Below are positions 17,975 to 40,796 of a stretch of 40,906 bases of DNA, piece after piece. The notes beneath the pieces are model-generated. The model saw only the letters and a program-made list of their open reading frames with translations, was not told the origin of the DNA and made no database searches. The first letter of the stretch is position 1. The number at the start of each line of letters is the position of its first letter. Origin of the DNA: Flavobacteriales bacterium (GTDB taxonomy: Bacteria > Bacteroidota > Bacteroidia > Flavobacteriales > BACL11); assembly GCA_012960805.1 (NCBI GenBank), contig DUAO01000010.1:1-40906 (forward strand), read 5' to 3'. The position numbers and the translations under genes were made by a program.

Positions 17975-19315
17975 CTAAAAAAGTTCCTTGCTAGAAGTTT
18001 TTAAAAAACCTACAAATCTATCGTATCTATCTCCTACAGCACGGTAGTACACATACATATAATAATCGTTACGGGTTTGGTAATGCGTTCCTTCAATAAA
18101 GGATACATCCACACGATTAGTGCTAATATCTTGCAGGGCATAATGGTAGTTGTAATAGCCTTGTTTTAAGTACACACTTCCCTCATATTGTCTTTTCTGC
18201 TTGTTATAGTGTAATTTGAAATCTTCTTTCAGTTCCCAATCAGAAAAGCCACCCAACAAATACAAATCACCATAACTGATATTATCCATAGGCAAAGTAA
18301 AATGCACAAAAGCATAGTCTGCTTCTATTGCTGAAATTCTCCCCTCTTGTGATTTAATCAGAAAATTACCGTTAATATCTGGCTCAATAGAATAGCGATC
18401 AAAAGAGCGTTTTCTATCATTGAATAAATAAACTTGGTTGTATGTGCTATCATAAGTAATATTTTTTATTCTTTCCGATTGATATCTTAAACTTTTAAAA
18501 TCAAAATGACGAAATTCATTGTTTCCCCAAAAGGTATTATCGTCCTCATAATCGTAAATCAACTCATCATTTTTAACAAATAGAGGCGTTAAATCAGTTA
18601 TTGCATTATCCTCTTTGTTGTTTTGCTTAATGGTAACTTTTATATCAGAAAACGGGTCACCCACCACTAAGTTAGGATGCTTAATTGTAAAGTCAATTTC
18701 GTGCTTGGTTGTACGGTCCTCTGCTAAGGTTGCACGCCTCACTTGAGCTTCAATTGTAAGTTTGGTTTCCAGTACCATAAAGCGTTTGTATGCAATAGCA
18801 CTTCCTCCTTCTTCAAATATTTTAAATACATAATTTCCGGAAAGCATAGGTTTTATTTCCTCTGTTGGGAATTCAAAACTATAATGCGTGTATTTTTGTA
18901 GAGTATTGAAAGAAAATTCATAATTTGTTATTGGCTCATCAGTAAAACCACTTATGTATTCTGATTGCATTAAATCGCTTGCCGTCCAGTCAGCATTACA
19001 ATGAATGATAGTGTAATAATAATCCTTAATGTCAGCTTCCAAATCATCAAAACTGATTAGTAATTGCTCTTCAGAGTTTAAATTGATTATTGACAGGGAA
19101 AGTTCTTCCTCTTTTTTATGGCAAAGCAGGGTTTTTATTTGTGTATTGAAGGTTCCATTTTTATAAATAATTGCAGGTTCAGCAATGGTTATTGCTTCTG
19201 TAATGTTGCTGTCTACTACTGAATTGTTAGTGCTTGTTATTTCTTTTGTGCTATGGCATGATGTTATAAAAACAATATAAATAATCAGTAGTATTAGAAA
19301 GTTGTTAAATCTCAT
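17975..19315 (-). CDS. DUF5103 family lipoprotein (family currently named type IX secretion system plug protein)
   Basis: 446 aa with a lipoprotein signal (FITSC). The block LISFDDLEADIKDYYYTIIHCNADWTASDLMQSEYISGF...SGNYVFKIF matches my recollection of DUF5103 family conservation. The assignment is by recognition, not computation. Confidence 0.55.
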   Translation of the reverse strand: MRFNNFLILLIIYIVFITSCHSTKEITSTNNSVVDSNITEAITIAEPAIIYKNGTFNTQIKTLLCHKKEEELSLSIINLNSEEQLLISFDDLEADIKDYYYTIIHCNADWTASDLMQSEYISGFTDEPITNYEFSFNTLQKYTHYSFEFPTEEIKPMLSGNYVFKIFEEGGSAIAYKRFMVLETKLTIEAQVRRATLAEDRTTKHEIDFTIKHPNLVVGDPFSDIKVTIKQNNKEDNAITDLTPLFVKNDELIYDYEDDNTFWGNNEFRHFDFKSLRYQSERIKNITYDSTYNQVYLFNDRKRSFDRYSIEPDINGNFLIKSQEGRISAIEADYAFVHFTLPMDNISYGDLYLLGGFSDWELKEDFKLHYNKQKRQYEGSVYLKQGYYNYHYALQDISTNRVDVSFIEGTHYQTRNDYYMYVYYRAVGDRYDRFVGFLKTSSKELF

Positions 19316-27353: not shown

Positions 27354-29594
27354 CTATTTAGCAATAGTAATCTTTTGTATGAAAGTTTCATCTCCTTTTG
27401 TGATGTTTATAAAGTAAACGCCACTACTTAAAGCAGTCACATCAATAGTGTTTTGGTAATCAGTAGTTAATACTGCTTTTCCAAATACATCATAAATAGT
27501 TGCTGAAGTATAATTTCCATCAATAACTAATCTATCTTTTACCGGGTTAGGGTATAAGTTAAAAGAGAATGTATTAGGTTCTTCAATTGAGTTAGTATTA
27601 CAAGCAGCATTACATGTTGCCAATGCACTATAGTTTCCTATTCCTGTTCCTGGGTCTACACAACCATTTACAGGGTCACAATCCCAAGAGTCAACAATAT
27701 TTATACTAGTTAATGCTGTTTTTCCTGCATTCAAAATTTCACCTGTCACTGCATTAATAATCATAACAACAGTATGTGCTTTAGTCCAATTAAAACCAAC
27801 ATCATTATACCCCGCTAATGAATTTGTACTTACATCAGTAAATATATGATTGTATATTCCCAGATTCACAGTTCCTGAAGGAAGACTTCCAGCATCTCCT
27901 AAAATATCATTATTAGAAAGCGATCTGGCAACATGATCATATCCTCCAAAACTTGCTGAAGGTACTGGGGATGCTGCAGTATTAAAACTAAAACCATTAT
28001 TTACATTAGCAGGGAAAGTCATATTAGTACTATTTCCTGAACCTCCAGGGCCATAATAGTTCTCTTGATCCCAACTAGAATTACTGCTTTGTAAGTCATC
28101 CTCAACAATAACACATGATAACCTGAAGTCACCAATTATATTACCGAAAAATTCAGCCTCAGTTGCAACACTTATTTTATTTGTTGATTGATCATAAACT
28201 GCAGTAATGCTATTTACAATACAAGGGACAATATCAGTTACTCTAGTAGCATGCATAGTTGAAAAATAAGCTGGGTTATCTTCCAAAACTCTATCCACTC
28301 CTCCTCCTGGATATCCTCCAGGAATATATGTGCCAATATTATCATCATATGCACTAATAGTCATTGGGTCGCCATTATGTACGGCTATTCCAATAAAACT
28401 TGATGTTGACTCCATTTCTCCTAAAGCAACAGCCCCTCTTGGACACCATCCGCACCAAGTTCCAGTTTTTTCTTCTCCCACTGTGGTTTTAGCAGGGATA
28501 GAGGTTAATCCTGCAATAGTAGTCGTTAAAGTGTTATTAGATGTGTCTAAATCAGCTGCATATTCTAACCATACAGTTAATGAATTTGCAGCAAGACTAT
28601 TTACAATAAGTTGTGCAGAATGTGTAAAGTTGTAAGTCCCATTCATTATAATATTTAAACCAGTTAAATTATCAGTATAAGTATTTGTCCCGTCTGACCA
28701 TTTAACATCAATACTAGTGATAAGATTTAATCCTCCATTTGTAATAGTGCCTTTAATATCAACATTAGTTGGATTTACAACATAGGCATCAATATCTAAT
28801 GCTGTTAGGATAGGATCATCAACAGGAGGGTCGCCTAATTCATATGAAAAGAGTGAAATCCCTTGGCTTATTCCAATCATTGAATTTGTACCTGTAACAA
28901 AATTATTACAGACAAATAATCCACCTGCAAGTCCACTAGATCCAGTTCCTAAGTCAGTAGTAGCGTCATGACTAATGCCTGTTGGAATACCTGTCATGCT
29001 TAATTGTATAATATCAGCACCATTTCCTCCCTGATCAAAAGCCCATAAATAAGGTCCACCCGTAGAATATCCATCATAAGCCATGCCGTAAATCGCACCA
29101 AGTCCGTGAGTTACTGAAGAGATTGTTGAAAGGGTTGCTCCGGTCATACTAACAGACAAAATATCTGAACCGTAAGCGCCTGTCCAAAATCCTCCATTTC
29201 CATTATCTAACGCAGGGTCAAAAGTTAAATATCGACAAGCAGGTACAGATGTATTTATTGTTGATACTAACGTTTTGGTAATTGGATCTACTTGATAAAT
29301 TGCAGCAGCAGCAGTACCGATATAAATATAGTTTCCATCAGTTGTCATGCTTCTAGTTCCTGTTATTCCTGAGATAGTGAAATTACCTGTCATGTTGCCT
29401 AAAGCGTCTGCAGTGTAAATGTTATTATCTGCCCACTTAGAAACCCAGAATTCAGATCCTGTCCACATAACTCCAGCTAATCCACTTGCAGGTGAAAATG
29501 AGACAATTGGATCAACATCCAATTGAACGTTCCATAATTGTGCTTGTGTTTGTAGCCCAAAAGCTACAAAAAGAACTAATAATAATTTTTTCAT
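27354..29594 (-). CDS. T9SS-sorted secreted protein with propeller-like N-terminal region and an Omp28-like/thioredoxin-like WCGWCP domain
   Basis: 746 aa. Signal peptide MKKLLLVLFVAFGLQTQAQ. C-terminal T9SS sorting domain (NLYPNPVKDRLVI...GVYFINI...IAK). An internal EEKTGTWCGWCPRGAVAL...IGIAVHNGDP segment (CxxC at nt 28440-28457) resembles the EEFTGxxCxxCP region I recall from Omp28-related proteins. Confidence 0.7.
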   Translation of the reverse strand: MKKLLLVLFVAFGLQTQAQLWNVQLDVDPIVSFSPASGLAGVMWTGSEFWVSKWADNNIYTADALGNMTGNFTISGITGTRSMTTDGNYIYIGTAAAAIYQVDPITKTLVSTINTSVPACRYLTFDPALDNGNGGFWTGAYGSDILSVSMTGATLSTISSVTHGLGAIYGMAYDGYSTGGPYLWAFDQGGNGADIIQLSMTGIPTGISHDATTDLGTGSSGLAGGLFVCNNFVTGTNSMIGISQGISLFSYELGDPPVDDPILTALDIDAYVVNPTNVDIKGTITNGGLNLITSIDVKWSDGTNTYTDNLTGLNIIMNGTYNFTHSAQLIVNSLAANSLTVWLEYAADLDTSNNTLTTTIAGLTSIPAKTTVGEEKTGTWCGWCPRGAVALGEMESTSSFIGIAVHNGDPMTISAYDDNIGTYIPGGYPGGGVDRVLEDNPAYFSTMHATRVTDIVPCIVNSITAVYDQSTNKISVATEAEFFGNIIGDFRLSCVIVEDDLQSSNSSWDQENYYGPGGSGNSTNMTFPANVNNGFSFNTAASPVPSASFGGYDHVARSLSNNDILGDAGSLPSGTVNLGIYNHIFTDVSTNSLAGYNDVGFNWTKAHTVVMIINAVTGEILNAGKTALTSINIVDSWDCDPVNGCVDPGTGIGNYSALATCNAACNTNSIEEPNTFSFNLYPNPVKDRLVIDGNYTSATIYDVFGKAVLTTDYQNTIDVTALSSGVYFINITKGDETFIQKITIAK

Positions 29595-30537: not shown

Positions 30538-32112
30538 ATGAAACAAACACTAATTACCTTTACAATTCTTACTTCAGTATTATTTGTAAATGCACAAAGT
30601 TTTAACGGATTTGCACTTTATAATGCTCAAGGGTCAAATACAACCTATTTAATTGATGAAAATCAAAATATTGCTCATACTTGGAATATGAGCACTGAAT
30701 GTAACTATACTGTAGCTCTAAAAGAAAATGGAAATTTAATAAGAGGTACTAAAGGGAATACGAGTTTATTTAGCACTGGAAATATTGCCGCTGGAGGAGG
30801 TATGGTTCAAGAAATTGCTCCAGATGGGACTATAGTGTGGGAATATATTTATGCAAATAGCGACCATATAAGTCACCATGATCTAACATTAGTTGGTGAT
30901 AATGTTTTACTTACTGCTTATGAAAAGAAGACTTCTTCCGAGTTAAATGATGCTGGATTTAATAATGCAAGTTCTGAAAAATGGCCAACTCATTTTGTTG
31001 AGTTAGCACCTGATGGTAATGGAGGAGCTACAATTGTTTGGGAGTGGTATATTTGGGATCATATGTGTCAAGATACTGATCCTAATGGACCTAATTACAT
31101 TTCAAATATTGCAGACAGTCCTGAACTTATTGATATAAATATGATACAAAGTCAAGGAGGTCCAGGTGGAGGTGATTGGTTTCATGTAAATGGTGTCGAT
31201 TATAATGAGGATTTAGATCAAATTGTTTTCTCATCTCGTTTTGCATCTGAAATTTATATAATTGATCATTCTACAACAACTGCTGAGGCCGCTACTCACT
31301 CAGGAGGAAATTCTGGAATGGGTGGTGATATATTATACAGATGGGGAAATCCTTCAAATTACGGTATGTCAGGATCTCAAATTATTGATAATGCTGTGCA
31401 TGATGCCAGGTGGATTACTGATGATGGAAGACCAAACGGAGGATATCTACAAATTTTTAATAATAGTGGAGTAAGTAGTACTGTATCTGCAATAGATGGT
31501 ATTGAAACTCCTTTAGATCCTGCTACTGGATATACTTATTTAAGAACTTCTGGGCAAGCTTTCGGTCCTGCTTCATATACAACTAGATATGAATGTGCTT
31601 ATTCATCCTCTGGTCAATCAGCTTCTGATAGAATGTCAAACGGAAACTTATATGTGAATGCTTCTGGAGGGCAAGGAGGTGCAGGAGTAATGTATGAGGT
31701 AGATGAAAATGGGGCTGTAGTATGGGGACCTTATAATGCTCAATCTCAAAAAGGATTCAGGTATGAATGTGATTATCCTGGTATTATAGCACTTGAGCTA
31801 TTTATAAATACTGCAACAACATCTTGTTTTACAGCAACCGCTATAAATGATGTTGATGATAATGTAATTTCAATATTTCCTAATCCAACAAACGGATCAA
31901 TTAATATAGTAATAAACCAATCTATAAGTAGAATTAATGAAATTAGTATTTTTAATATTTTAGGTCAACCTGTGTATAATAAATCTATTAATGAGGCGGG
32001 TGAGATGGTGTTAAAAGTAGATTTGAGTGAATATTCAGAAGGAATATATATTCTTAATTTGTTTCATAATACTGGAAAAATAGATGCTAGACGAATATCG
32101 TATATTAAGTAA
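30538..32112 (+). CDS. Secreted arylsulfotransferase (ASST)-like beta-propeller protein with T9SS C-terminal domain
   Basis: 524 aa. Signal peptide ...LFVNAQS. The blocks SHHDLTLVGDNVLL, WEWYIWDH and DWFHVNGVDYNEDLDQIVFSSRFASEIYIIDH resemble the ASST family as I recall it. The T9SS CTD is IFPNPTNGSINI...GIYILNL.... The family call needs an HMM check. Confidence 0.5.
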   Translation: MKQTLITFTILTSVLFVNAQSFNGFALYNAQGSNTTYLIDENQNIAHTWNMSTECNYTVALKENGNLIRGTKGNTSLFSTGNIAAGGGMVQEIAPDGTIVWEYIYANSDHISHHDLTLVGDNVLLTAYEKKTSSELNDAGFNNASSEKWPTHFVELAPDGNGGATIVWEWYIWDHMCQDTDPNGPNYISNIADSPELIDINMIQSQGGPGGGDWFHVNGVDYNEDLDQIVFSSRFASEIYIIDHSTTTAEAATHSGGNSGMGGDILYRWGNPSNYGMSGSQIIDNAVHDARWITDDGRPNGGYLQIFNNSGVSSTVSAIDGIETPLDPATGYTYLRTSGQAFGPASYTTRYECAYSSSGQSASDRMSNGNLYVNASGGQGGAGVMYEVDENGAVVWGPYNAQSQKGFRYECDYPGIIALELFINTATTSCFTATAINDVDDNVISIFPNPTNGSINIVINQSISRINEISIFNILGQPVYNKSINEAGEMVLKVDLSEYSEGIYILNLFHNTGKIDARRISYIK

Positions 32113-32117
32113 ATATA

Positions 32118-34382
32118 ATGTTGTTAAAACGACTTCCTATTTGTATACTTTTATTATTGTTTTTTCATATTTCATTTTCACAAAATAGTTTTTATGATAC
32201 TGATAGTGTAAGAGAAATACGTATTAGTTTTTATAATACAAATTGGGATTATCTTTTAGATAGTCTGTATGTACAAGGTGATAACGATAGAATTTTAGCT
32301 GATATTGAAATAGATGGAGATTCCTATGATAGCGTTGGGATCCGTTATAAAGGGTTTAGTTCTGTTAGTGTAAATCGTCTAAAAAACCCCTTCAATATTA
32401 AGTTAGATTACATAATTGAAGGACAAGACCATCAAGGCGTAGACAAACTTAAACTTTCTAATGTTATTCAGGATCCTTCCTTTATCCGAGAGGTGTTGTC
32501 TTATGAAGTATGTCGTAAATACATGCCATCATCTCAGGCAAATTATGCAAATATCTTCATTAACGATACCCTTTGGGGTTTATACACAAATGTTGAAACA
32601 GTAAACAAAAGTTTCCTGATTGATCATTTTGATAGTAAGTATAATTCATTTTTTAAATGTAATCCTGAAAATTTAAATGTTCAAATTGGTGGAGAAAATG
32701 CTAACTTAAGCAACACTCATGGAACTGACAGTAGCGACTATTATCCATTTTATGCTCTAAAATCTGATTATGGATGGGAAGATTTATACAATCTGATTGA
32801 CACATTAAATAATGTTTCAGACAGCATTCATCACGTCTTAAATGTGGATAGAACCTTATGGATGCATGCTTTAAATTATTCAATGATAAATTTTGATTCT
32901 TATATAGGATATGGACAAAATTACTATTTATACAAAGATCAGGCAAATCAGTGGAATCCAATAATTTGGGATTTAAATATGTCGTTTGGAGGCTTTAAAT
33001 TAACAGATGCTTCACAACAATATTTTAATGGTTTTGATATTACTCAAGCTCAGAATATGGATCCTCTCACACATTATTATCATACTTCCCAGCCTCCTTT
33101 TAATACTTTGAGACCATTGTTAAAAAATTTATTTTCTTCTGAGAGAAATAGAAAAATGTATTTGGCACATATGCGAACAATAATGGAAGAGAATTTTGTT
33201 AATCAGGATTATTTTGTAAGGGGGCAAGCCTTACAGAATTTGATTGATCAGGATGTGCAAAATGATACTAATAAATTTTATACTTATTCTGATTTTATAA
33301 CAAACCTTACAAGTCAAGTTTCATTAGTGGCATCAATTTGTCCTGGTATTGCTCAATTAATGGATAGTCGCTCAACTTATTTAAGTTCATATTTAGGATA
33401 TTCAGGTGAACCTATAATTTCAAATATCGCTTATACTCCTCAAAATTTCATTTTAGGTGATGACATATGGATAACAGCAGAAGTGATAGACGCAACTTTT
33501 GCAAAAGTAGCTTACCGATTTGGAAAAAATGAACGATTTAAATCAGTAGAAATGCATGATGATGGTAACCATAATGACGGCACATCAGGTGATGGAATTT
33601 ATGGATGTAAAATAAGTAATTGCAGTAATTCATTAGATTACTATTTATATGCTGATAATGATTCTGCTGGAGTTTTCTCCCCAGCAAGAGCTGCTTATCA
33701 GTACTATACTATTCAAACTACTATTCAACCAGGAGATTTAGTTATAAATGAAGTTATGTCTAATAATATAAGTACAGTAACTGATAATAGCGGAAAATAT
33801 GAAGATTGGATTGAACTATATAATACAACCTCCTCTCCAATTTCAACAAATGGTTTGTTTATAACAGACACGCTTGCTTATCTTCACAAATGGAATTTAC
33901 CTAATCATATTATCCCACCTAATTCTTATTCTATTATTTGGGCTGATGAGGACGGAAACCAAGGAGAGGAGCATTCAAATTTTCAATTGTCTAATTTAGG
34001 AGAATCACTTATTTTATCTAATTCTGATAGTTCAGTTATTGATTCTATAACTTTTCTTCCTCAATTAGATGATATAGCTTTTGGAAGAAGCCCTAATGGT
34101 ATTGGATCTTTTACTATGCTAACACCAACCTTTAAAGCGAATAATGATTTCCCCAATTTAATTGATGAGATAAGTGAGAAAGTAATAATTTATCCTAATC
34201 CTTTTACTGATGTTTTATATTTGGAAAAGAAAGAGAAAATTGAAGTTAGGGATTTATTAGGTAAAATCATTTATAGCGCAGCAAGTGCAAATCGAATACA
34301 AACATCAGATTGGGATTCAGGGGTTTATTTCATATCTTTGAAAGATAAAAGACAGACTATAAAAGTTATTAAAATTAAATAG
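32118..34382 (+). CDS. CotH kinase-fold protein + lamin tail domain + T9SS C-terminal domain (paralog 1)
   Basis: 754 aa with a signal peptide. CotH blocks: KNPFNIKLDY, LKLSNVIQDPSFIREVLSYEVCRKYMP, ANIFINDTLWGLYTNVE and NYYLYKD...IIWDLNMSFG. LTD block: LVINEVMSNN...YEDWIELYN...SNFQLSNLGESLIL. CTD: IIYPNPFTDVLYL...GVYFISL. Confidence 0.85.
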   Translation: MLLKRLPICILLLLFFHISFSQNSFYDTDSVREIRISFYNTNWDYLLDSLYVQGDNDRILADIEIDGDSYDSVGIRYKGFSSVSVNRLKNPFNIKLDYIIEGQDHQGVDKLKLSNVIQDPSFIREVLSYEVCRKYMPSSQANYANIFINDTLWGLYTNVETVNKSFLIDHFDSKYNSFFKCNPENLNVQIGGENANLSNTHGTDSSDYYPFYALKSDYGWEDLYNLIDTLNNVSDSIHHVLNVDRTLWMHALNYSMINFDSYIGYGQNYYLYKDQANQWNPIIWDLNMSFGGFKLTDASQQYFNGFDITQAQNMDPLTHYYHTSQPPFNTLRPLLKNLFSSERNRKMYLAHMRTIMEENFVNQDYFVRGQALQNLIDQDVQNDTNKFYTYSDFITNLTSQVSLVASICPGIAQLMDSRSTYLSSYLGYSGEPIISNIAYTPQNFILGDDIWITAEVIDATFAKVAYRFGKNERFKSVEMHDDGNHNDGTSGDGIYGCKISNCSNSLDYYLYADNDSAGVFSPARAAYQYYTIQTTIQPGDLVINEVMSNNISTVTDNSGKYEDWIELYNTTSSPISTNGLFITDTLAYLHKWNLPNHIIPPNSYSIIWADEDGNQGEEHSNFQLSNLGESLILSNSDSSVIDSITFLPQLDDIAFGRSPNGIGSFTMLTPTFKANNDFPNLIDEISEKVIIYPNPFTDVLYLEKKEKIEVRDLLGKIIYSAASANRIQTSDWDSGVYFISLKDKRQTIKVIKIK

Positions 34383-34384
34383 AT

Positions 34385-35620
34385 ATGAAAAAGGTTTTAC
34401 TAATAATAATGTGCTTTATTGCAATGCAATTAGGCGCTCAAACTATTACAAACTACACTACAGCAGATGGTCTTGTTGATAATTTTGTAGAATGTATTGA
34501 TATAGATGTTAACGATAGTCTTTGGATTGGAACTTCTGTTGGTGTTCAAATGTTTAGTGGATCTTCAGGAACAGTTTATGATATGGTAAATTATCCTGGA
34601 ATGCTATCAGATAATATTAAAGTTATTAGCGGCACTTCTACTGGAGATATATGGATTGGTACAGATTATGGTGCAAGTAAATTGACAGCTGGTTTTAGCG
34701 GGATGTTTTGGCTATCTTATACAACTACAGATGGACTTATCAGTAACCAAGTAAAAAGTATTGATGAGGATGTAAATGGAGGAATATGGATTGGAACCAA
34801 CCAAGGCGTTTCTTATTTTGACGGTAATTCTTGGATATCTTATTCCTCTCCTGATTTGCATTGGAGTGGGGTGAATGCTATAGCTTTTGACTTAAATGGA
34901 GATAAGTGGTTTGCTTCACCACTAGGGGGTGTTACTCATTTTGATGGTGCAACTTTTACTAATTACGATACCTCAAATGGATTACTTTCACAAAATGTGA
35001 CCGCTTTACTTATAGATAATCAAGATAACAAGTGGATTGGAACAGACCTTGGAATGTCTGTTCTTAATGCTTCAAATTCATCTTTTATTGATTATATAGA
35101 GATGTATCCCCTTCCACCACCTCATGATTCTATAAACCCTGTAGTAGATATTGCAATGGATTCATACGGAAGAATATGGACTGCTATATATGTAGGATAT
35201 TTAGCAGAAGGCGGGATAGCAATGTGGGATGGTAATCAGTGGTTTGATTTTGATGTAAGTGATGGATTAATTGGACCAAATGTAAGAGGGTTAGCAATTG
35301 ATTCCCAAGACAATGTATGGGTAGCAACTAGTGCTGGGGTTTCTAAAATATCTTCTATTCCAAGTACAGTAAGTAATATTTCAAACTCTGTTGTTGAGGT
35401 GTATCCAAATCCAACTTTAGGTAAGGTTTATATTAATACTCAATCTGAAAACTTTAATACTATTGCTGTGTACAATAATATTGGTTCACTTGTTTATTCT
35501 GAAAACCTTAAGTGTCAACAAAAAATAGAGATAGATTTCTCATCTCTTACAAAAGGCCTTTACCACATTAACTTACATTCTGATAAAGGTGTTGAAAATC
35601 ATAAACTTCTTATTAAGTAG
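34385..35620 (+). CDS. Secreted 7-bladed two-component-regulator-propeller (Reg_prop) repeat protein with T9SS C-terminal domain
   Basis: 411 aa with a signal peptide. Seven repeats of the W[IVF]GT..G type are present (WIGTSVGV, WIGTDYGA, WIGTNQGV, WFASPLGGV, WIGTDLGM, WTAIYVGY, WVATSAGV). They are interleaved with T..dGL.sN.V motifs. CTD: VYPNPTLGKVYI...GLYHINL. Confidence 0.75.
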   Translation: MKKVLLIIMCFIAMQLGAQTITNYTTADGLVDNFVECIDIDVNDSLWIGTSVGVQMFSGSSGTVYDMVNYPGMLSDNIKVISGTSTGDIWIGTDYGASKLTAGFSGMFWLSYTTTDGLISNQVKSIDEDVNGGIWIGTNQGVSYFDGNSWISYSSPDLHWSGVNAIAFDLNGDKWFASPLGGVTHFDGATFTNYDTSNGLLSQNVTALLIDNQDNKWIGTDLGMSVLNASNSSFIDYIEMYPLPPPHDSINPVVDIAMDSYGRIWTAIYVGYLAEGGIAMWDGNQWFDFDVSDGLIGPNVRGLAIDSQDNVWVATSAGVSKISSIPSTVSNISNSVVEVYPNPTLGKVYINTQSENFNTIAVYNNIGSLVYSENLKCQQKIEIDFSSLTKGLYHINLHSDKGVENHKLLIK

Positions 35621-35658: not shown

Positions 35659-37866
35659 ATGAAAAAAGTAGTGCTTATTTTAGGGTTGTTGTTTTTTACT
35701 TTTACTTCATTTAGTCAAGATGTTTTTGATGTTGGAATACGAAATATTGAAATCTTTTTTTCAGAACCAAATTGGGATGATACTCTAGATTTGTATTATG
35801 CCAATGATTTAGGTCAACGATTAATAGCTGACTCTGTTTTAATAGATGGTATAGCCGATCAAGATGTTGGAATAAAATATAAAGGCAATAGTTCATATAA
35901 TATTAATAATGTCAAAAATCCTTTAAATATTAGGTTGAATTATGTTAATAATGGTCAGTCAATTGATGGTTATAATGTGTTAAAATTATCAAATGGATTT
36001 AAGGATCCTACTTTAGTACGAGAAGTGTTGAGTTATGAAATTGCAAGAGAATACATGCCTTCTTCAAAGGCTACTTATGCTAATGTTTATATAAATGGGA
36101 ATTGGAATGGTATATATACTTGTATTCAATCAGTTGATGATGATTTTACAAATGAACATTTTTATGAGCGTAAAGGTCCTTTTTTTAAAGCTGATAATAC
36201 AAATATAATAGTTAGCGGTTGCCCTCCTGGGCCATTAGGAATATTAAGTTATTACACAGATACTAATTGTTACCAAAGAGCATATGAAATTCAATCCACT
36301 AATGATTGGACACAACTAGGTAATTTTCTAGATACATTAAACAATCATTTTACTGAGATTGAAACTGTCATGGATATTGATAGAGCACTTTGGATGATGG
36401 CTTTTGAGAATTTAACAGTATGCTTAGATGGCCCTATAAATGCAATTCCTCATAATTATTATTTATTTAAAGATAATAATGGGAGATTCAGTCCAATCAT
36501 TTGGGATATGAATCAAGCTTTTGGAACATTTACAAATGGGTTGCCAACTCCAGTAACAAATCAAAGCTTGCAGCAATTAGATGCTTTTTATGGAAGTACA
36601 AATAATCAAAATATTTTAACTAGCCAAATCTTTTCATCAGACCAATATAAGAGAATGTATATAGCGCACATGCGGACAATTATTAATGAGTATTTTTCTA
36701 ATAATCAGTATCATACTCGTGCATTACAATTACAACAATTGATTGACGCTTCAGTTGCAGCTGACCCAAATTTATTTTTTCCTTACGCAACTTTTCAAAC
36801 CAATCTCAATTCAACAATAGGTAATAATATTGGTTTAACAGAATTAATGGATGCTAGAGTTGCTTATTTACAAGGGTTAAGTGAATTTACAGCATCACCT
36901 CCATCTATCACAAATTTAAGCTCAAATCCAACAGCTGTTTTACCCCATAGTACTGTGAGTATTACTGCTGCTATTAGTAATACAAATTATGCTTATTTAG
37001 GATATCGATTTAAGTTTTCTGATAAGTTTGAAAAAATAGAAATGTATGATGATGGCTTGAATGGTGATGGTACTGCTGGAGATGGTATTTTTGGTGCAAC
37101 AATAAATATTGATGCTCGTGATGTTCAGTATTACATTTATGCTGAAAATACTAATGCCGGAATTTTCTCTCCTGAAAGAGCTGAAAAAGAATTTCACCAA
37201 TTAGTAGTAGTAAGTGGTTTGGTGATTAATGAAGTTATGGCAGCTAATTTTTCAGCAGTTGCTGATCAAAGTGGGGAGTTTGATGATTGGGTAGAATTGT
37301 ATAATGGTAATAATTTTAGCCTGAATCTTAATGGATATTATTTGTCTGACAGTGAGAATGATTTAACAAAATGGACATTCCCTAATGTTACTATTCCCGC
37401 TAATGACTATCTAATTATTTGGTGTGATACTGCTGGAGGTACTCAATCCGGATTACATACCACTTATCGCCTTTCAGCAGATCAAGAGGAAGTCTATTTA
37501 ACAGCCCCAACAGGAATTGTTATTGATGCCGTACATTATGTAAATATGCCAACTGATATGGGCTATGCTCGTGTGCCGAATGGAACAGGACCTATGCAAT
37601 ATCAAACACAAACTTATGATGATAATAACCAAAATGGAACAGGAATTGCTAATATAAATGTAAGTGGTAAAATGAGAGTATATCCTAATCCTAGTAATAA
37701 CAGAATCTATATATTGGGAGCAACTGAAAGTATAGCTATTTTTAATATGATGGGGCAAAAAGTATATACTGAAAATCAAATAAATTCTGTGGATATTACC
37801 AGTTGGGAAAATGGAATTTACTTTGTAAAATCAGGAAATAGTGTTGTTAAAATTTTAAAACAATAA
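35659..37866 (+). CDS. CotH kinase-fold protein + lamin tail domain + T9SS C-terminal domain (paralog 2)
   Basis: 735 aa with the same architecture as 32118-34382. Shared blocks include KNPLNIRLNY, LKLSNGFKDPTLVREVLSYEIAREYMP, HNYYLFKD...IIWDMNQAFG, LVINEVMAANF...FDDWVELYN and CTD VYPNPSNNRIYI...GIYFVKS. The two paralogs are clearly diverged, judged by eye. Confidence 0.85.
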   Translation: MKKVVLILGLLFFTFTSFSQDVFDVGIRNIEIFFSEPNWDDTLDLYYANDLGQRLIADSVLIDGIADQDVGIKYKGNSSYNINNVKNPLNIRLNYVNNGQSIDGYNVLKLSNGFKDPTLVREVLSYEIAREYMPSSKATYANVYINGNWNGIYTCIQSVDDDFTNEHFYERKGPFFKADNTNIIVSGCPPGPLGILSYYTDTNCYQRAYEIQSTNDWTQLGNFLDTLNNHFTEIETVMDIDRALWMMAFENLTVCLDGPINAIPHNYYLFKDNNGRFSPIIWDMNQAFGTFTNGLPTPVTNQSLQQLDAFYGSTNNQNILTSQIFSSDQYKRMYIAHMRTIINEYFSNNQYHTRALQLQQLIDASVAADPNLFFPYATFQTNLNSTIGNNIGLTELMDARVAYLQGLSEFTASPPSITNLSSNPTAVLPHSTVSITAAISNTNYAYLGYRFKFSDKFEKIEMYDDGLNGDGTAGDGIFGATINIDARDVQYYIYAENTNAGIFSPERAEKEFHQLVVVSGLVINEVMAANFSAVADQSGEFDDWVELYNGNNFSLNLNGYYLSDSENDLTKWTFPNVTIPANDYLIIWCDTAGGTQSGLHTTYRLSADQEEVYLTAPTGIVIDAVHYVNMPTDMGYARVPNGTGPMQYQTQTYDDNNQNGTGIANINVSGKMRVYPNPSNNRIYILGATESIAIFNMMGQKVYTENQINSVDITSWENGIYFVKSGNSVVKILKQ

Positions 37867-37868
37867 TT

Positions 37869-38285
37869 ATGAAAAAAATAGTTCTATTTTTAAGTCTTCT
37901 TATTAGTTTTTCCTCTTGCGAAAAAGAGGCTGGCGAAGGAGGTACTTCAGTAATTGAAGGGCAAGTATATAAAATACATACTTTTCAAAATTTCACAACA
38001 GGAGTATGGGATACTTTGTACTATCAATTGGATGCAGGAAAAGATGTGTACATTATTTATTCTGATAACCAAAGTGATGTATATGATGATAAATTTGAAA
38101 CTGATTATAATGGAATATACCGTTTTGAATATTTAAGAAAAGGAGATTATACTATCTATACTTATGCAGATAGCATTGATATGAATAATGTAAATTATGA
38201 TTATCCAATTTTCAAACACATCAAGATTAACTCAAATAATTCTGATAATAGTGTTGAAGACTTTGTAATTGAGAAAAATCAATAA
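37869..38285 (+). CDS. Small lipoprotein of unknown function (possible CarboxypepD_reg-like beta-sandwich)
   Basis: 138 aa with lipobox SFSSC. The pattern VIEGQVY...TDYNGIYRFEYLRKGDYTIYTY resembles carboxypeptidase-regulatory-like domains. It starts 2 nt after the CotH-2 stop. Confidence 0.55.
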   Translation: MKKIVLFLSLLISFSSCEKEAGEGGTSVIEGQVYKIHTFQNFTTGVWDTLYYQLDAGKDVYIIYSDNQSDVYDDKFETDYNGIYRFEYLRKGDYTIYTYADSIDMNNVNYDYPIFKHIKINSNNSDNSVEDFVIEKNQ

Positions 38286-39035
38286 GTGAATAGTCTACCT
38301 GCAATAATATCTGATTTCACTCCAATATCTTTAGGTGAAATGGATGACGTGAAATTAATGAGCCGTACAGATACTAAATTTGCTTTTCAAACAAATAAAT
38401 TGCCATTTCTTCTCAAAAGATTAATACCTTTTTATCGTGTTTTAGCCATTGATGGAAAGTTAATACATGATTACAAATCACTTTATTATGATACAGAGGA
38501 AAGAAAATTCTATATCGACCATCATAATAGTAGAGTAAACAGAAACAAAATCAGATTCCGAGAATATGTGGGGAGTGGACTGACTTTTTTGGAAATAAAA
38601 CGAAAAAACAACAAAGGGAAAACCATTAAAAAAAGAATGAAAGTAGATGCTATTACTAAAGAACTTTCAGAAAAACATAAAAAATATATTAAAAAAATCA
38701 TTGGAAAAAAGCTAGTAGTAAATGCTAAACAATGGATTAATTTTAGTCGCATTACTTTGGTGCATAAAACTCAGAAAGAGCGATTAACTATTGATATAAA
38801 TCTTACATTTGAAAATGAAAAATTAAGTGGAGAGTTAAAACAAATTATTATAGCTGAGGTTAAGCAAGAAAAAATGAGCAGGTCTTCTGATTTTATGAAA
38901 ATTGCAAAAGAAATGAGTATCTTGCCAATCCGATTAAGCAAGTATTGTATAACAACATTACAGCTTAATCCTGATGTTAAACAAAATAGATTTAAAGAAA
39001 AATTATTATTTATTAATAAATTAAAACAAGCATAA
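38286..39035 (+). CDS. VTC domain (polyphosphate polymerase-like, triphosphate-tunnel fold) protein, GTG start
   Basis: 249 aa with no signal peptide. Blocks FTPISLGEMDDVKLMSRTDTKFAF, YKSLYYDTEERKFY, NKIRFREY, FLEIKRKNNKGKTIKKR and IIAEVKQE match bacterial VTC-domain proteins. The conserved N-terminal block precedes the first ATG, so the GTG at 38286 is the likely start. Confidence 0.8.
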   Translation: MNSLPAIISDFTPISLGEMDDVKLMSRTDTKFAFQTNKLPFLLKRLIPFYRVLAIDGKLIHDYKSLYYDTEERKFYIDHHNSRVNRNKIRFREYVGSGLTFLEIKRKNNKGKTIKKRMKVDAITKELSEKHKKYIKKIIGKKLVVNAKQWINFSRITLVHKTQKERLTIDINLTFENEKLSGELKQIIIAEVKQEKMSRSSDFMKIAKEMSILPIRLSKYCITTLQLNPDVKQNRFKEKLLFINKLKQA

Positions 39036-39676
39036 TGGAATTATTACTTATTCTACTAGATAGCATTGAGTTTTTAGGCACTCCACTTTTTGATTCTGAG
39101 GATTTTTTGAAACTTATTGTTAAGACGGTTTTCAATTTAATAATTATTACTGTAATTATAAGATATATCTATTATCCTGTAACAAAGAACAAGGACTATT
39201 TATTTACTTATTTTCTTATTAGTATGACAGTTTTCTTGCTTTGCGTGCTTTTAGATAGTGTAAAATTACAATTAGGATTTGCACTTGGACTTTTTGCAAT
39301 ATTTGGTATTATTCGTTACCGAACCGATCCCATTGCTATTAAGGAAATGACTTATTTATTTTTAGTGATTGGAATTTCAGTTGTTAATGCACTTTCAAAT
39401 AAAAAGATTAGTTATGCTGAGCTTGTGTTTGCTAATCTTATGATTGTTTTTCTTACCTATGGAATGGAAAAAATATGGTTATTAAGACATCAAAGCAGAA
39501 AAAACATTACATATGAAAAAATTGAATTAATAGTACCAGAAAAGCGAGAAGAATTAATAGCTGATTTAAAAGCAAGAACAGGTATAGATGTTATTCGTGT
39601 TGAAATTAGAAGAATTGACTTTTTAAGAGATACGGCTAACTTGCGAATTTTCTATTATGAGGAAGATTCTGAATAA
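39035..39676 (+). CDS. DUF4956 domain-containing inner-membrane protein
   Basis: 213 aa with about 5 predicted TM helices. The conserved core is LGFALGLFAIFGIIRYRTDPIAIKEMTYLF. The soluble C-terminal tail is about 70 aa. Its ATG overlaps the VTC stop (TAATG). Confidence 0.75.
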   Translation: MELLLILLDSIEFLGTPLFDSEDFLKLIVKTVFNLIIITVIIRYIYYPVTKNKDYLFTYFLISMTVFLLCVLLDSVKLQLGFALGLFAIFGIIRYRTDPIAIKEMTYLFLVIGISVVNALSNKKISYAELVFANLMIVFLTYGMEKIWLLRHQSRKNITYEKIELIVPEKREELIADLKARTGIDVIRVEIRRIDFLRDTANLRIFYYEEDSE

Positions 39677-40301
39677 ATTCATTCTAATTTTCATTTTACC
39701 AATTTCTGTTTTTTCTCAAGAAAATGATTTCCAAACTTGGGCTTCTATTTCGGCAAGTAAAAAGATAATAAAGAAAACAAATCTGACCATAAAACAAGGT
39801 GTTCGCTTTAGAGAAAATTCGTCTCTTTATTCTAAGCTTTTTACAGATTTAAAAATCAAAAGCAAATACAATAAACATTTCAGCTTTGCTATTGGTTATC
39901 GCTTTTCTAATGATTGGAATAAGCAATTGGAGTTAAGCCAAAAAAACAGATTTTATTCTGACATTTACTATAAAGACAAATACAAAAAAAGGTTTTTGTT
40001 TGATGCGCGAGCCAGATTGCAAACACAAGGAAATATAGAAGAGTATGCTGCTACATTTAGGCATAAATCAGCATTGGCTTACAATATTCCAAAAACAAAA
40101 TTGGAGCCATCAGTTGCTTTGGAATATTTCCTGCCTTTTGAAAATATGCTAATAGATAAATTGCGTTATACAATTGGACTTTCTCATCCCATTACAAAAG
40201 ATTTGGATGCTGAAATAGCATATAGAATTCAACAAGAGTTTTATACCAATAATCCGCAAACTCTTTTTATCTTTGAAGGAAAATTAGCTTACGATTTTTA
40301 A
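39657..40301 (+). CDS. DUF2490 domain-containing predicted outer-membrane beta-barrel protein
   Basis: 214 aa. Signal peptide ...PISVFSQ, then ENDFQTW. The sequence shows alternating amphipathic strand patterns and ends in a terminal aromatic residue (LAYDF), as in OMP beta-signals. It overlaps DUF4956 by 20 nt. Confidence 0.65.
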   Translation: MRKILNKFILIFILPISVFSQENDFQTWASISASKKIIKKTNLTIKQGVRFRENSSLYSKLFTDLKIKSKYNKHFSFAIGYRFSNDWNKQLELSQKNRFYSDIYYKDKYKKRFLFDARARLQTQGNIEEYAATFRHKSALAYNIPKTKLEPSVALEYFLPFENMLIDKLRYTIGLSHPITKDLDAEIAYRIQQEFYTNNPQTLFIFEGKLAYDF

Positions 40302-40307
40302 AATATT

Positions 40308-40796
40308 ATGAAAGAAAAGAAAATTGAACTCTCATTTATTTCAGCAGAATTAAGCGAACTCAGTACGCAGGAGAAGCAATTAGTTGCCAATGCAAAATCA
40401 GCAGTTACTACTGCTTATGCTCCATATTCAGGTTTTTTGGTTGGCGCAAGTGTATTACTAGATAATGGAGAAATTATAAATGGATCCAATCAGGAAAATG
40501 TTGCATATCCTTCAGGGCTTTGCGCGGAAAGGGTAGCACTCTTTTATGCTGGAGCACGCTTTCCGGATGCAAAAATAAAAACAATTGCCGTATCAGTTAT
40601 GTCTAAAAACTTTAAGGTAACGGATGTTATTTCTCCTTGTGGTGCATGTAGGCAAGTAATGGCAGAATATGAGGATAAGCAAGAACAAGCAATAAAAGTA
40701 ATTTTACACTCCCCAACGGATCAGGTTCTTATTGCAAATACTGTTGAGTCTTTGCTGCCATTTATGTTTAAAAGCCCTTTACTAAAGCAGCACTAG
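40308..40796 (+). CDS. cdd: Cytidine deaminase
   Basis: 162 aa with zinc-binding/catalytic motifs CAERVAL and SPCGACRQVM. Confidence 0.88.
   Translation: MKEKKIELSFISAELSELSTQEKQLVANAKSAVTTAYAPYSGFLVGASVLLDNGEIINGSNQENVAYPSGLCAERVALFYAGARFPDAKIKTIAVSVMSKNFKVTDVISPCGACRQVMAEYEDKQEQAIKVILHSPTDQVLIANTVESLLPFMFKSPLLKQH

Follow-up and report, generated by a model that had tools for sequence, protein, structure and literature searches.

Introduction

A 2025 review distinguishes two types of polyphosphate polymerase, PPK in prokaryotes and VTC in eukaryotes. The yeast VTC complex (structures 3G3Q, 3G3R, 7YTJ and 8I6V) combines a soluble catalytic tunnel with a membrane component. In the cryo-electron microscopy study of this complex by Liu et al., E426 of the subunit Vtc4 holds Mn, and K200, R264, R266, K281, R361, K458, S457 and Y359 coordinate triphosphate, all of them being required for polyphosphate accumulation. 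Of these residues, only K458 is replaced in the inactive subunits Vtc2 and Vtc3, which carry Ile/Leu there. Here, a gene cluster of a Flavobacteriales bacterium is compared with this and other described systems. It is located at positions 37869 to 40301 on the plus strand of the window, i.e. the whole analysed stretch of 40,906 nucleotides (nt) of contig DUAO01000010.1, and consists of four tightly packed genes encoding a lipoprotein-like protein, a VTC-domain protein, a DUF4956 membrane protein and a DUF2490 outer-membrane β-barrel protein, downstream of two genes for secreted CotH kinase-like proteins. The findings support a split, envelope-spanning VTC-like machine which handles a phosphate polyanion, probably for the extracytoplasmic CotH enzymes.

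Three of the protein families have been described together before. Whitfield et al. (2020) reported a group of cotH, polyphosphate polymerase and DUF4956 genes beside Gram-positive pel operons; the clusters as published list no outer-membrane gene. For the corresponding genes of Streptococcus intermedius (SIR_1594 to SIR_1592; mBio 2025), the AlphaFold model of SIR_1593 was Vtc4-like with catalytic residues and the CotH protein was predicted to be secreted. The aggregation that was reduced in that study was Pel-dependent, and polyphosphate itself was not measured. A 2024 preprint on S. intermedius considered that polyphosphate may stay in the cytoplasm, since this species lacks the remaining VTC subunits. 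The disease-associated NELoc-2 locus of Clostridium perfringens likewise contains a CotH gene and two genes with a VTC domain, and Bacteroides thetaiotaomicron possesses a DUF4956/DUF2490 pair (BT3498-99); a literature search for BT3497-3500 yielded a single, non-significant transcriptome entry. In the literature searched, no paper was found in which a bacterial VTC-domain protein had been studied biochemically, and neither the papers on the Gram-positive pel loci nor any other had proposed DUF4956 as a polyphosphate conduit. An export model, an outer-membrane partner or the Alteromonadales cassette of CotH, VTC, DUF4956 and Porin_O_P genes presented below was likewise not found there. The neighbourhood of CotH, VTC and DUF4956 is already known; the export model and the outer-membrane component appear to be new with respect to that literature.

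Compared with the yeast complex, the VTC-domain protein of the window has the same Pfam domain, tunnel fold and triphosphate- and metal-binding residues, and its gene is likewise paired with that of a membrane component. It differs from Vtc4 in lacking the SPX domain and the fused domain of three transmembrane helices, and in having Phe in place of Tyr359. The membrane partner is a DUF4956 protein (four to five transmembrane helices and a C-terminal soluble domain) for which no similarity to DUF202/Vtc1 could be detected. Exported CotH proteins and an outer-membrane barrel come in addition, and the product would end up in the periplasm or at the cell surface instead of the vacuole. Since SPX domain and DUF202 subunits are missing, the system falls outside the eukaryotic VTC complex, whereas the catalytic protein belongs to the VTC tunnel family. 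The Gram-positive pel loci have the same three families side by side; the window differs from them in having no pel operon nearby, in the additional DUF2490 barrel and small lipoprotein, and in two CotH paralogues, each with lamin-tail and type IX secretion domains. A preliminary description of the window, made from the sequence alone, had interpreted the four-gene cluster as a possible split bacterial analogue of the eukaryotic VTC polymerase/translocase. It was incomplete, as the two upstream CotH genes and a β-propeller gene between them had been missed and the Gram-positive gene neighbourhood was already published.

The VTC-domain protein

The proteins encoded in the window were scanned against Pfam and NCBIfam, and gene junctions were read from the sequence. 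NCBIfam has no model matching the VTC, DUF4956 or DUF2490 protein. The VTC-domain protein (249 amino acids; positions 38286 to 39035, plus strand) matched Pfam VTC (PF09359) with 71.8 bits (cut-off 23; E=8.2e-20) over residues 27 to 226, which is its sole Pfam match; an N-terminal SPX domain was not identified by Pfam. The GTG start is supported by the conservation of residues 1 to 18 among close homologues. Hydropathy analysis revealed no hydrophobic segment, in line with the preliminary description, in which a transmembrane segment was absent as well. Clustered at 50% identity, the results of a family search comprised 3612 representatives, most of them stand-alone proteins of approximately 250 amino acids. 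The window protein, with its complete catalytic set, is a member of a large bacterial family, at variance with the textbook view that ascribes polyphosphate synthesis in bacteria to PPK1 and PPK2.

A PDB search with the single sequence gave only weak, spurious matches (e.g. PvuII and a kinesin) and was uninformative, so that a profile of diverse homologues was needed. A set of 81 diverse homologues was used for the profile search, for conservation counts and for the AlphaFold2 alignment. With this profile, only the tunnel domains of yeast Vtc2 (2.4e-5) and Vtc4 (6.1e-5) were matched in the PDB. An AlphaFold2 run with 36 close homologues (79-96% identity) reached a predicted local distance difference test score (pLDDT) of 47 and was replaced by the run with the 81 diverse sequences, which had a pLDDT of 95.6 and a predicted template modelling score of 0.90. 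When the latter model was compared to the PDB with Foldseek, the 13 best matches were yeast VTC subunits (Vtc4, Vtc3 and Vtc2; E-values of 2.7e-12 to 6.8e-10, TM-scores over the query of 0.53-0.64). YgiF, CYTH-type proteins, thiamine triphosphatase and AtTTM3 ranked below them.

The residue numbering of the profile alignment was verified against Vtc4. K31 of the window protein corresponds to K200 of Vtc4, R90/R92 to R264/R266, E103/K105 to E279/K281, K115/R117 to K294/R296, R155 to R361, R166/D170 to R373/D377, E191/K193 to E426/K428 and S218/K219 to S457/K458. The preliminary description had associated four sequence motifs with the triphosphate-tunnel fold. All four are located on tunnel strands, RTDTKF containing the equivalent of K200, KIRFREY those of R264/R266, FLEIKRK those of E279/K281 and IIAEVKQE those of E426/K428, and both the fold and the conservation of the basic tunnel residues it had suggested were borne out by the model and the alignment. 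The mapped residues are invariant in the 81 homologues with the exception of R166, which is Lys in one sequence, and they are also identical in the copies from Gammaproteobacteria, Deinococcus and Aminobacter. K219, the equivalent of K458, is found in 81/81 homologues and in the copies from the other phyla. Judged from alignment and predicted structure, the protein is a Vtc4-like triphosphate-tunnel enzyme with a complete set of catalytic residues, and it is regarded as a putative polyphosphate polymerase.

The tunnel fold is common to triphosphatases and CYTH enzymes, among them the above-mentioned YgiF, thiamine triphosphatase and AtTTM3, and most bacterial members carry Phe at the Tyr359 position. 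Both observations would fit a tripolyphosphate or nucleotide hydrolase, or an enzyme producing a signalling nucleotide with DUF4956 as the sensor. Such a function is nevertheless improbable: yeast VTC subunits outrank all hydrolases by sequence and by structure, the K458 equivalent, which marks the polymerase among the VTC paralogues, is invariant, and cytoplasmic signalling would hardly account for the link with exported enzymes and a phosphate-selective porin.

Gene order and conservation

The genes of the cluster are closely joined. The TAA stop codon of the lipoprotein gene (37869 to 38285) directly abuts the GTG start of the VTC gene, the sequence TAATG at 39033 to 39037 is common to the VTC stop and the DUF4956 start (39035 to 39676), and the DUF2490 gene (39657 to 40301) overlaps the DUF4956 gene by 20 nt (39657 to 39676). 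Upstream, the stop codon of the second CotH gene is separated by 2 nt from the ATG of the lipoprotein gene. That the lipoprotein gene immediately precedes VTC, that VTC and DUF4956 meet in TAATG and that the next overlap is 20 nt long had been stated in the preliminary description and was confirmed when the junctions were read.

For a comparison within the Bacteroidota, 80 species-level loci with relatives of the VTC protein were scanned by iterated profiles. VTC is directly followed by DUF4956 in 78/80 loci, and one of the two exceptions is located at a contig end. A DUF2490 gene comes directly after DUF4956 in 75/80 loci, including those of divergent rumen Paludibacteraceae, where one case was Pfam-confirmed. 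The 20-nt overlap of DUF4956 and DUF2490 was seen again in 25 loci; adjacency and conserved overlaps were used for comparison, as intergenic distances are unreliable where the estimated start of DUF4956 extends the protein N-terminally. The proposal that the tunnel enzyme and the membrane protein are separate but paired polypeptides, and that an outer-membrane barrel belongs to the same unit, therefore stands. The clade to which the window belongs (marine Flavobacteriales/Cryomorphaceae) is known mostly from metagenome-assembled genomes.

DUF4956 adjoins VTC in four lineages beyond Bacteroidota. A Deinococcus plasmid has the order CotH, VTC, DUF4956. In Aminobacter (L083, 6962 to 9214), the order is reversed (DUF4956, VTC) and followed by a phytase-like esterase, another phosphate-related extracytoplasmic enzyme beside the module. 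A Pseudoalteromonas megaplasmid has a phosphate-selective porin O/P gene (Pfam E=2.4e-47) 1 nt downstream of DUF4956; this locus looks decayed and includes a short lamin-tail fragment. A homologue search with the Pseudoalteromonas DUF4956 protein led to six Alteromonadales contigs (Colwelliaceae, Shewanella holmiensis, a Paraglaciecola-like bacterium and three others). All six contain a cassette of CotH, VTC, DUF4956 and Porin_O_P on the same strand amid unrelated flanks. DUF4956 starts 1-10 nt past VTC, while Porin_O_P overlaps DUF4956 in four of the loci and comes directly after it in a fifth. In this cassette, the first three components, their order, the coupling and the VTC catalytic residues are as in the window; it differs in that an OprO/OprP-family porin of approximately 360 amino acids takes the place of DUF2490 and in that CotH is a lipoprotein of approximately 860 amino acids and not a type IX cargo. 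Since the gene order recurs in Bacteroidota, Gammaproteobacteria and Deinococcota amid unrelated flanks, a chance adjacency was rejected.

In three of the six Alteromonadales loci (L085, 1 to 2182; L086, 1 to 2121; L089, 1 to 1210), an OmpR-type two-component system precedes the cassette on the same strand, and a small EF-hand protein and a protein of approximately 150 amino acids without family assignment are encoded after it. The EF-hand neighbour hints at calcium-linked regulation.

The DUF4956 protein

The DUF4956 protein (213 amino acids; plus strand, coordinates given above) matched the full length of the Pfam model (PF16316; 185 bits, E=1e-54) and is the proposed membrane partner or conduit of the VTC enzyme in the inner membrane. 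Hydropathy analysis agreed with the about five transmembrane helices and the soluble tail named in the preliminary description, placing the helices at roughly residues 24-46, 55-74, 78-93, 105-120 and 128-146, followed by a C-terminal tail of about 60-70 amino acids, which is taken to be cytoplasmic. For the streptococcal homologue, the AlphaFold model published in the S. intermedius work has four transmembrane helices. An invariant signature, GLFA.F..(I/L)RYRT....IKEMTYLF, is located at the loop between helices three and four and kept across phyla, and the later helices carry conserved polar residues. A profile search with DUF4956 returned close marine relatives only.

A metagenomic protein of 384 amino acids (P0271) was considered as a VTC-DUF4956 fusion and rejected, as its sequence shows DUF4956 partly duplicated in tandem, which is probably an artefact of assembly or duplication.

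The outer-membrane component

The DUF2490 protein (214 amino acids; Pfam PF10677, 82 bits, E=5e-23) belongs to a family listed as putative porins (TCDB 1.B.81). Its signal peptide (MRKILNKFILIFILPISVFS/QE) and its C-terminal end LAYDF, both reported in the preliminary description, were read in the translation. Among 77 DUF2490 sequences from the loci, R50, R98, R118, R120, R135, K137, R170 and R190 are conserved at 92-99% and further Lys positions are conserved as well, while E156 is the sole acidic position at a comparable level. The mature protein has a net charge of +11. The pairs R118/R120 and R135/K137 have i/i+2 spacing and, if this part of the chain is β-strand, would face the same side, which fits a cationic lumen.

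In all six Alteromonadales loci, the position of DUF2490 is occupied by Porin_O_P. OprO of Pseudomonas aeruginosa is described as selective for polyphosphate and pyrophosphate. The idea of a barrel that passes a phosphate polyanion gains independent support from this substitution together with the conserved basic residues of DUF2490, which is the proposed anion conduit of the window system.

The same porins can be read differently, since OprO/OprP-family porins take up phosphate species. Polyphosphate might remain in the cytoplasm as storage material, with DUF4956 as an anchor or as a sensor of a small ligand through an ACT-like domain, a barrel that imports phosphate, and CotH proteins that are unrelated to the pathway. 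The lack of similarity between DUF4956 and the yeast channel subunits would be in line with this, as would the suggestion of cytoplasmic polyphosphate by the S. intermedius authors, who assigned an MgtC-like membrane domain and an ACT domain to the DUF4956 homologue. No sequence support was found for the MgtC relationship: DUF4956 gave no MgtC match in Pfam at E-values up to 10, and hhalign assigned a probability of 0.07 to an alignment of the DUF4956 profile with E. coli YhiD, an MgtC-family protein. As this template was a single sequence, the two may still be related at the level of the fold. Cytoplasmic storage also leaves unexplained why exported CotH proteins accompany VTC-DUF4956 in several phyla and why the outer-membrane gene is translationally coupled to DUF4956, and a storage enzyme would need no dedicated porin within an operon of secreted proteins. 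It is therefore considered rather unlikely.

CotH proteins and the lipoprotein

Two CotH kinase-like proteins are encoded upstream of the cluster. CotH1 (32118 to 34382, plus strand; Pfam CotH E=5e-38) and CotH2 (35659 to 37866, plus strand; E=4e-41) both contain a lamin-tail domain and a C-terminal type IX secretion domain (Por_Secre_tail), and CotH2 has an N-terminal signal-like segment. When CotH2 was aligned to Bacillus cereus CotH (5JD9), the Asp residues in CLDGP and IIWDMN were found at the FDG and WD positions, which are 23 residues apart in B. cereus CotH, as are D228 and D251 in B. subtilis. The corresponding motifs of CotH1 are NFDSY and IIWDLN, and related loci likewise have this gene upstream. 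In the Alteromonadales copies, which have lamin-tail domains and a lipoprotein signal, the catalytic Asp positions are kept, too.

CotH accompanies the VTC module in the window, Mariniflexile, Deinococcus, 6/6 Alteromonadales loci, Streptococcus, Clostridium and Bifidobacterium. The export signals differ: the window proteins have a type IX tail, those of Gammaproteobacteria and Mariniflexile a lipoprotein signal, and the Streptococcus protein a secretion signal. Among the Bacteroidota loci, a CotH gene is located at a distance of up to 10 kb in 31/80 cases, and in Mariniflexile directly after DUF2490. Secreted CotH kinases are thus a core part of the VTC system across phyla.

In 32/80 Bacteroidota loci, mostly of rumen lineages, the trio of VTC, DUF4956 and DUF2490 is flanked by a Cthe_2159-type carbohydrate-binding protein. 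Rumen Paludibacteraceae (L038 to L079, e.g. L041, 8289 to 9995) encode one to four Cthe_2159-family β-helix proteins in place of CotH, and one Flavobacteriaceae locus (L035) has both CotH and a Cthe_2159-family protein.

With carbohydrate-binding proteins beside the trio, a carrier-linked product has to be considered, i.e. that phosphate or a short phosphoanhydride chain is put on an exopolysaccharide such as Pel or on surface proteins by CotH or Cthe_2159-type proteins. CotH proteins are phosphotransferases by family, and CotH of B. subtilis heavily phosphorylates Ser-rich coat proteins; moreover, the module adjoins pel operons in Gram-positives, where its loss alters Pel level and aggregation. 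The window, however, contains no polysaccharide synthesis genes near the cluster. This alternative, judged unlikely, overlaps with the export of free polyphosphate, only the fate of the product being different. We know of no evidence for any CotH protein using a donor other than ATP, which also counts against it.

The gene directly upstream of VTC encodes the small lipoprotein-like protein (138 amino acids, plus strand). Its N-terminus, MKKIVLFLSLLISFSSC, is a signal peptide with a lipobox-like Cys at its end. In Pfam, only a sub-threshold SdrD_B match was obtained, so that no confident family can be given. A lipoprotein gene is found at this position in 33 loci, mostly of Flavobacteriales, and is a clade-specific accessory. 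Acidic residues just after the lipobox Cys (C-EKEAGEGG) resemble the surface-export signal of Bacteroidota.

Proposed pathway

In the proposed pathway, the VTC enzyme at the cytoplasmic face would polymerise the γ-phosphate of ATP (or another nucleoside triphosphate), with a divalent metal on E191 and the basic tunnel residues. DUF4956 may take the nascent polyphosphate chain across the inner membrane into the periplasm, and the cationic DUF2490 barrel, or the OprO/P-type porin in Gammaproteobacteria, may carry it on through the outer membrane. The CotH enzymes, secreted by the type IX system, would then use or process polyphosphate at the surface, most simply as a phosphoryl donor where ATP is absent. 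The core of this reading, that the system makes polyphosphate and exports it, is given a probability of roughly 0.5. The full version, in which one four-part machine of VTC, DUF4956, DUF2490 or OprO/P, and CotH extrudes polyphosphate in several phyla as an extracytoplasmic phosphoryl or energy donor, is a tentative proposal.

Several observations weigh against synthesis coupled to export. The Tyr359 position is F153 in the window protein, and among the 81 homologues it is F in 57, Y in 23 and C in one; the gammaproteobacterial copies have Y. In yeast, a Y359F mutant has lowered polyphosphate (Liu et al.). In S. intermedius, deletion of DUF4956 or CotH cut aggregation and deletion of VTC did not, which is a misfit with a strictly linear pathway. 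Twelve DUF4956 proteins searched against Pfam had no match to DUF202, the membrane domain of Vtc1/Vtc4, even at E-values up to 10, and in the PDB no similarity of DUF4956 to any solved structure was detected. DUF4956 would hence correspond to the yeast channel by analogy and not by homology, and a single monomer with four to five helices is not by itself a pore. The mature DUF2490 protein is small (approximately 190 residues), and since a preprint finds buried charge networks within some predicted DUF2490 barrels, the lumen could be filled. In the Pseudoalteromonas locus (L081, 6216 to 8594), DUF4956 and the porin are intact next to a VTC fragment of approximately 107 amino acids. As OprO/OprP porins are known as uptake channels, the porin comparison fixes the substrate class and not the direction. 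In the literature searched, no activity, interaction or localisation data on any bacterial member were found.

Taken with these points, the preliminary interpretation is partly supported. The Vtc4-like enzyme, the gene pairing and the barrel agree with a split VTC analogue; no likeness of DUF4956 to the membrane domain of Vtc1/Vtc4 was detected.

PPK1 and PPK2 form the product proposed here, polyphosphate from nucleoside triphosphate, with unrelated folds, and to our knowledge they do not couple synthesis to export. If the proposed pathway is correct, it would be a further (third, exported) route of polyphosphate synthesis, with the first dedicated polyphosphate export path in bacteria, and the system would plausibly be related to the VTC complex of eukaryotes. 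It would also provide a rationale for extracytoplasmic CotH kinases, which would be supplied with a phosphoryl donor outside the reach of ATP. The presence of the genes in streptococcal pel loci, C. perfringens, gut Bacteroides and abundant marine Flavobacteriales makes their function relevant to biofilms, to interactions with hosts and to the cycling of phosphorus in the sea.

Genomic context of the cluster

The four genes upstream of the lipoprotein gene are packed with gaps of 2-38 nt. Between CotH1 and CotH2, a β-propeller protein with Reg_prop repeats and a type IX secretion tail is encoded (34385 to 35620, plus strand; Pfam Reg_prop and Por_Secre_tail), as in related marine Flavobacteriales loci. 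An arylsulfotransferase-like propeller protein, also a type IX secretion cargo (30538 to 32112, plus strand), is encoded upstream of CotH1; its gene ends 5 nt before CotH1 and may start the operon. A scan of the window identified no terminator-like site on the plus strand between 29.5 and 40.9 kb. The promoter scan was uninformative, as sigma-70-like sites were rarer than in shuffled sequences, which is expected in Bacteroidota.

Downstream, a cytidine deaminase gene (40308 to 40796) is located 6 nt past DUF2490 and is found at the same place in most related marine Flavobacteriales loci; it has no obvious link to the VTC system. The remainder of the window comprises tuf-nusG-rplKAJL-rpoBC, the Nqr operon, ApbE and a type IX secretion plug protein, i.e. 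core chromosome, so that the cluster is not on an obvious mobile element. The plug-protein gene (17975 to 19315) is encoded on the minus strand of the same window as the CotH cargo, and so is a large type IX cargo protein without assigned family (27354 to 29594).

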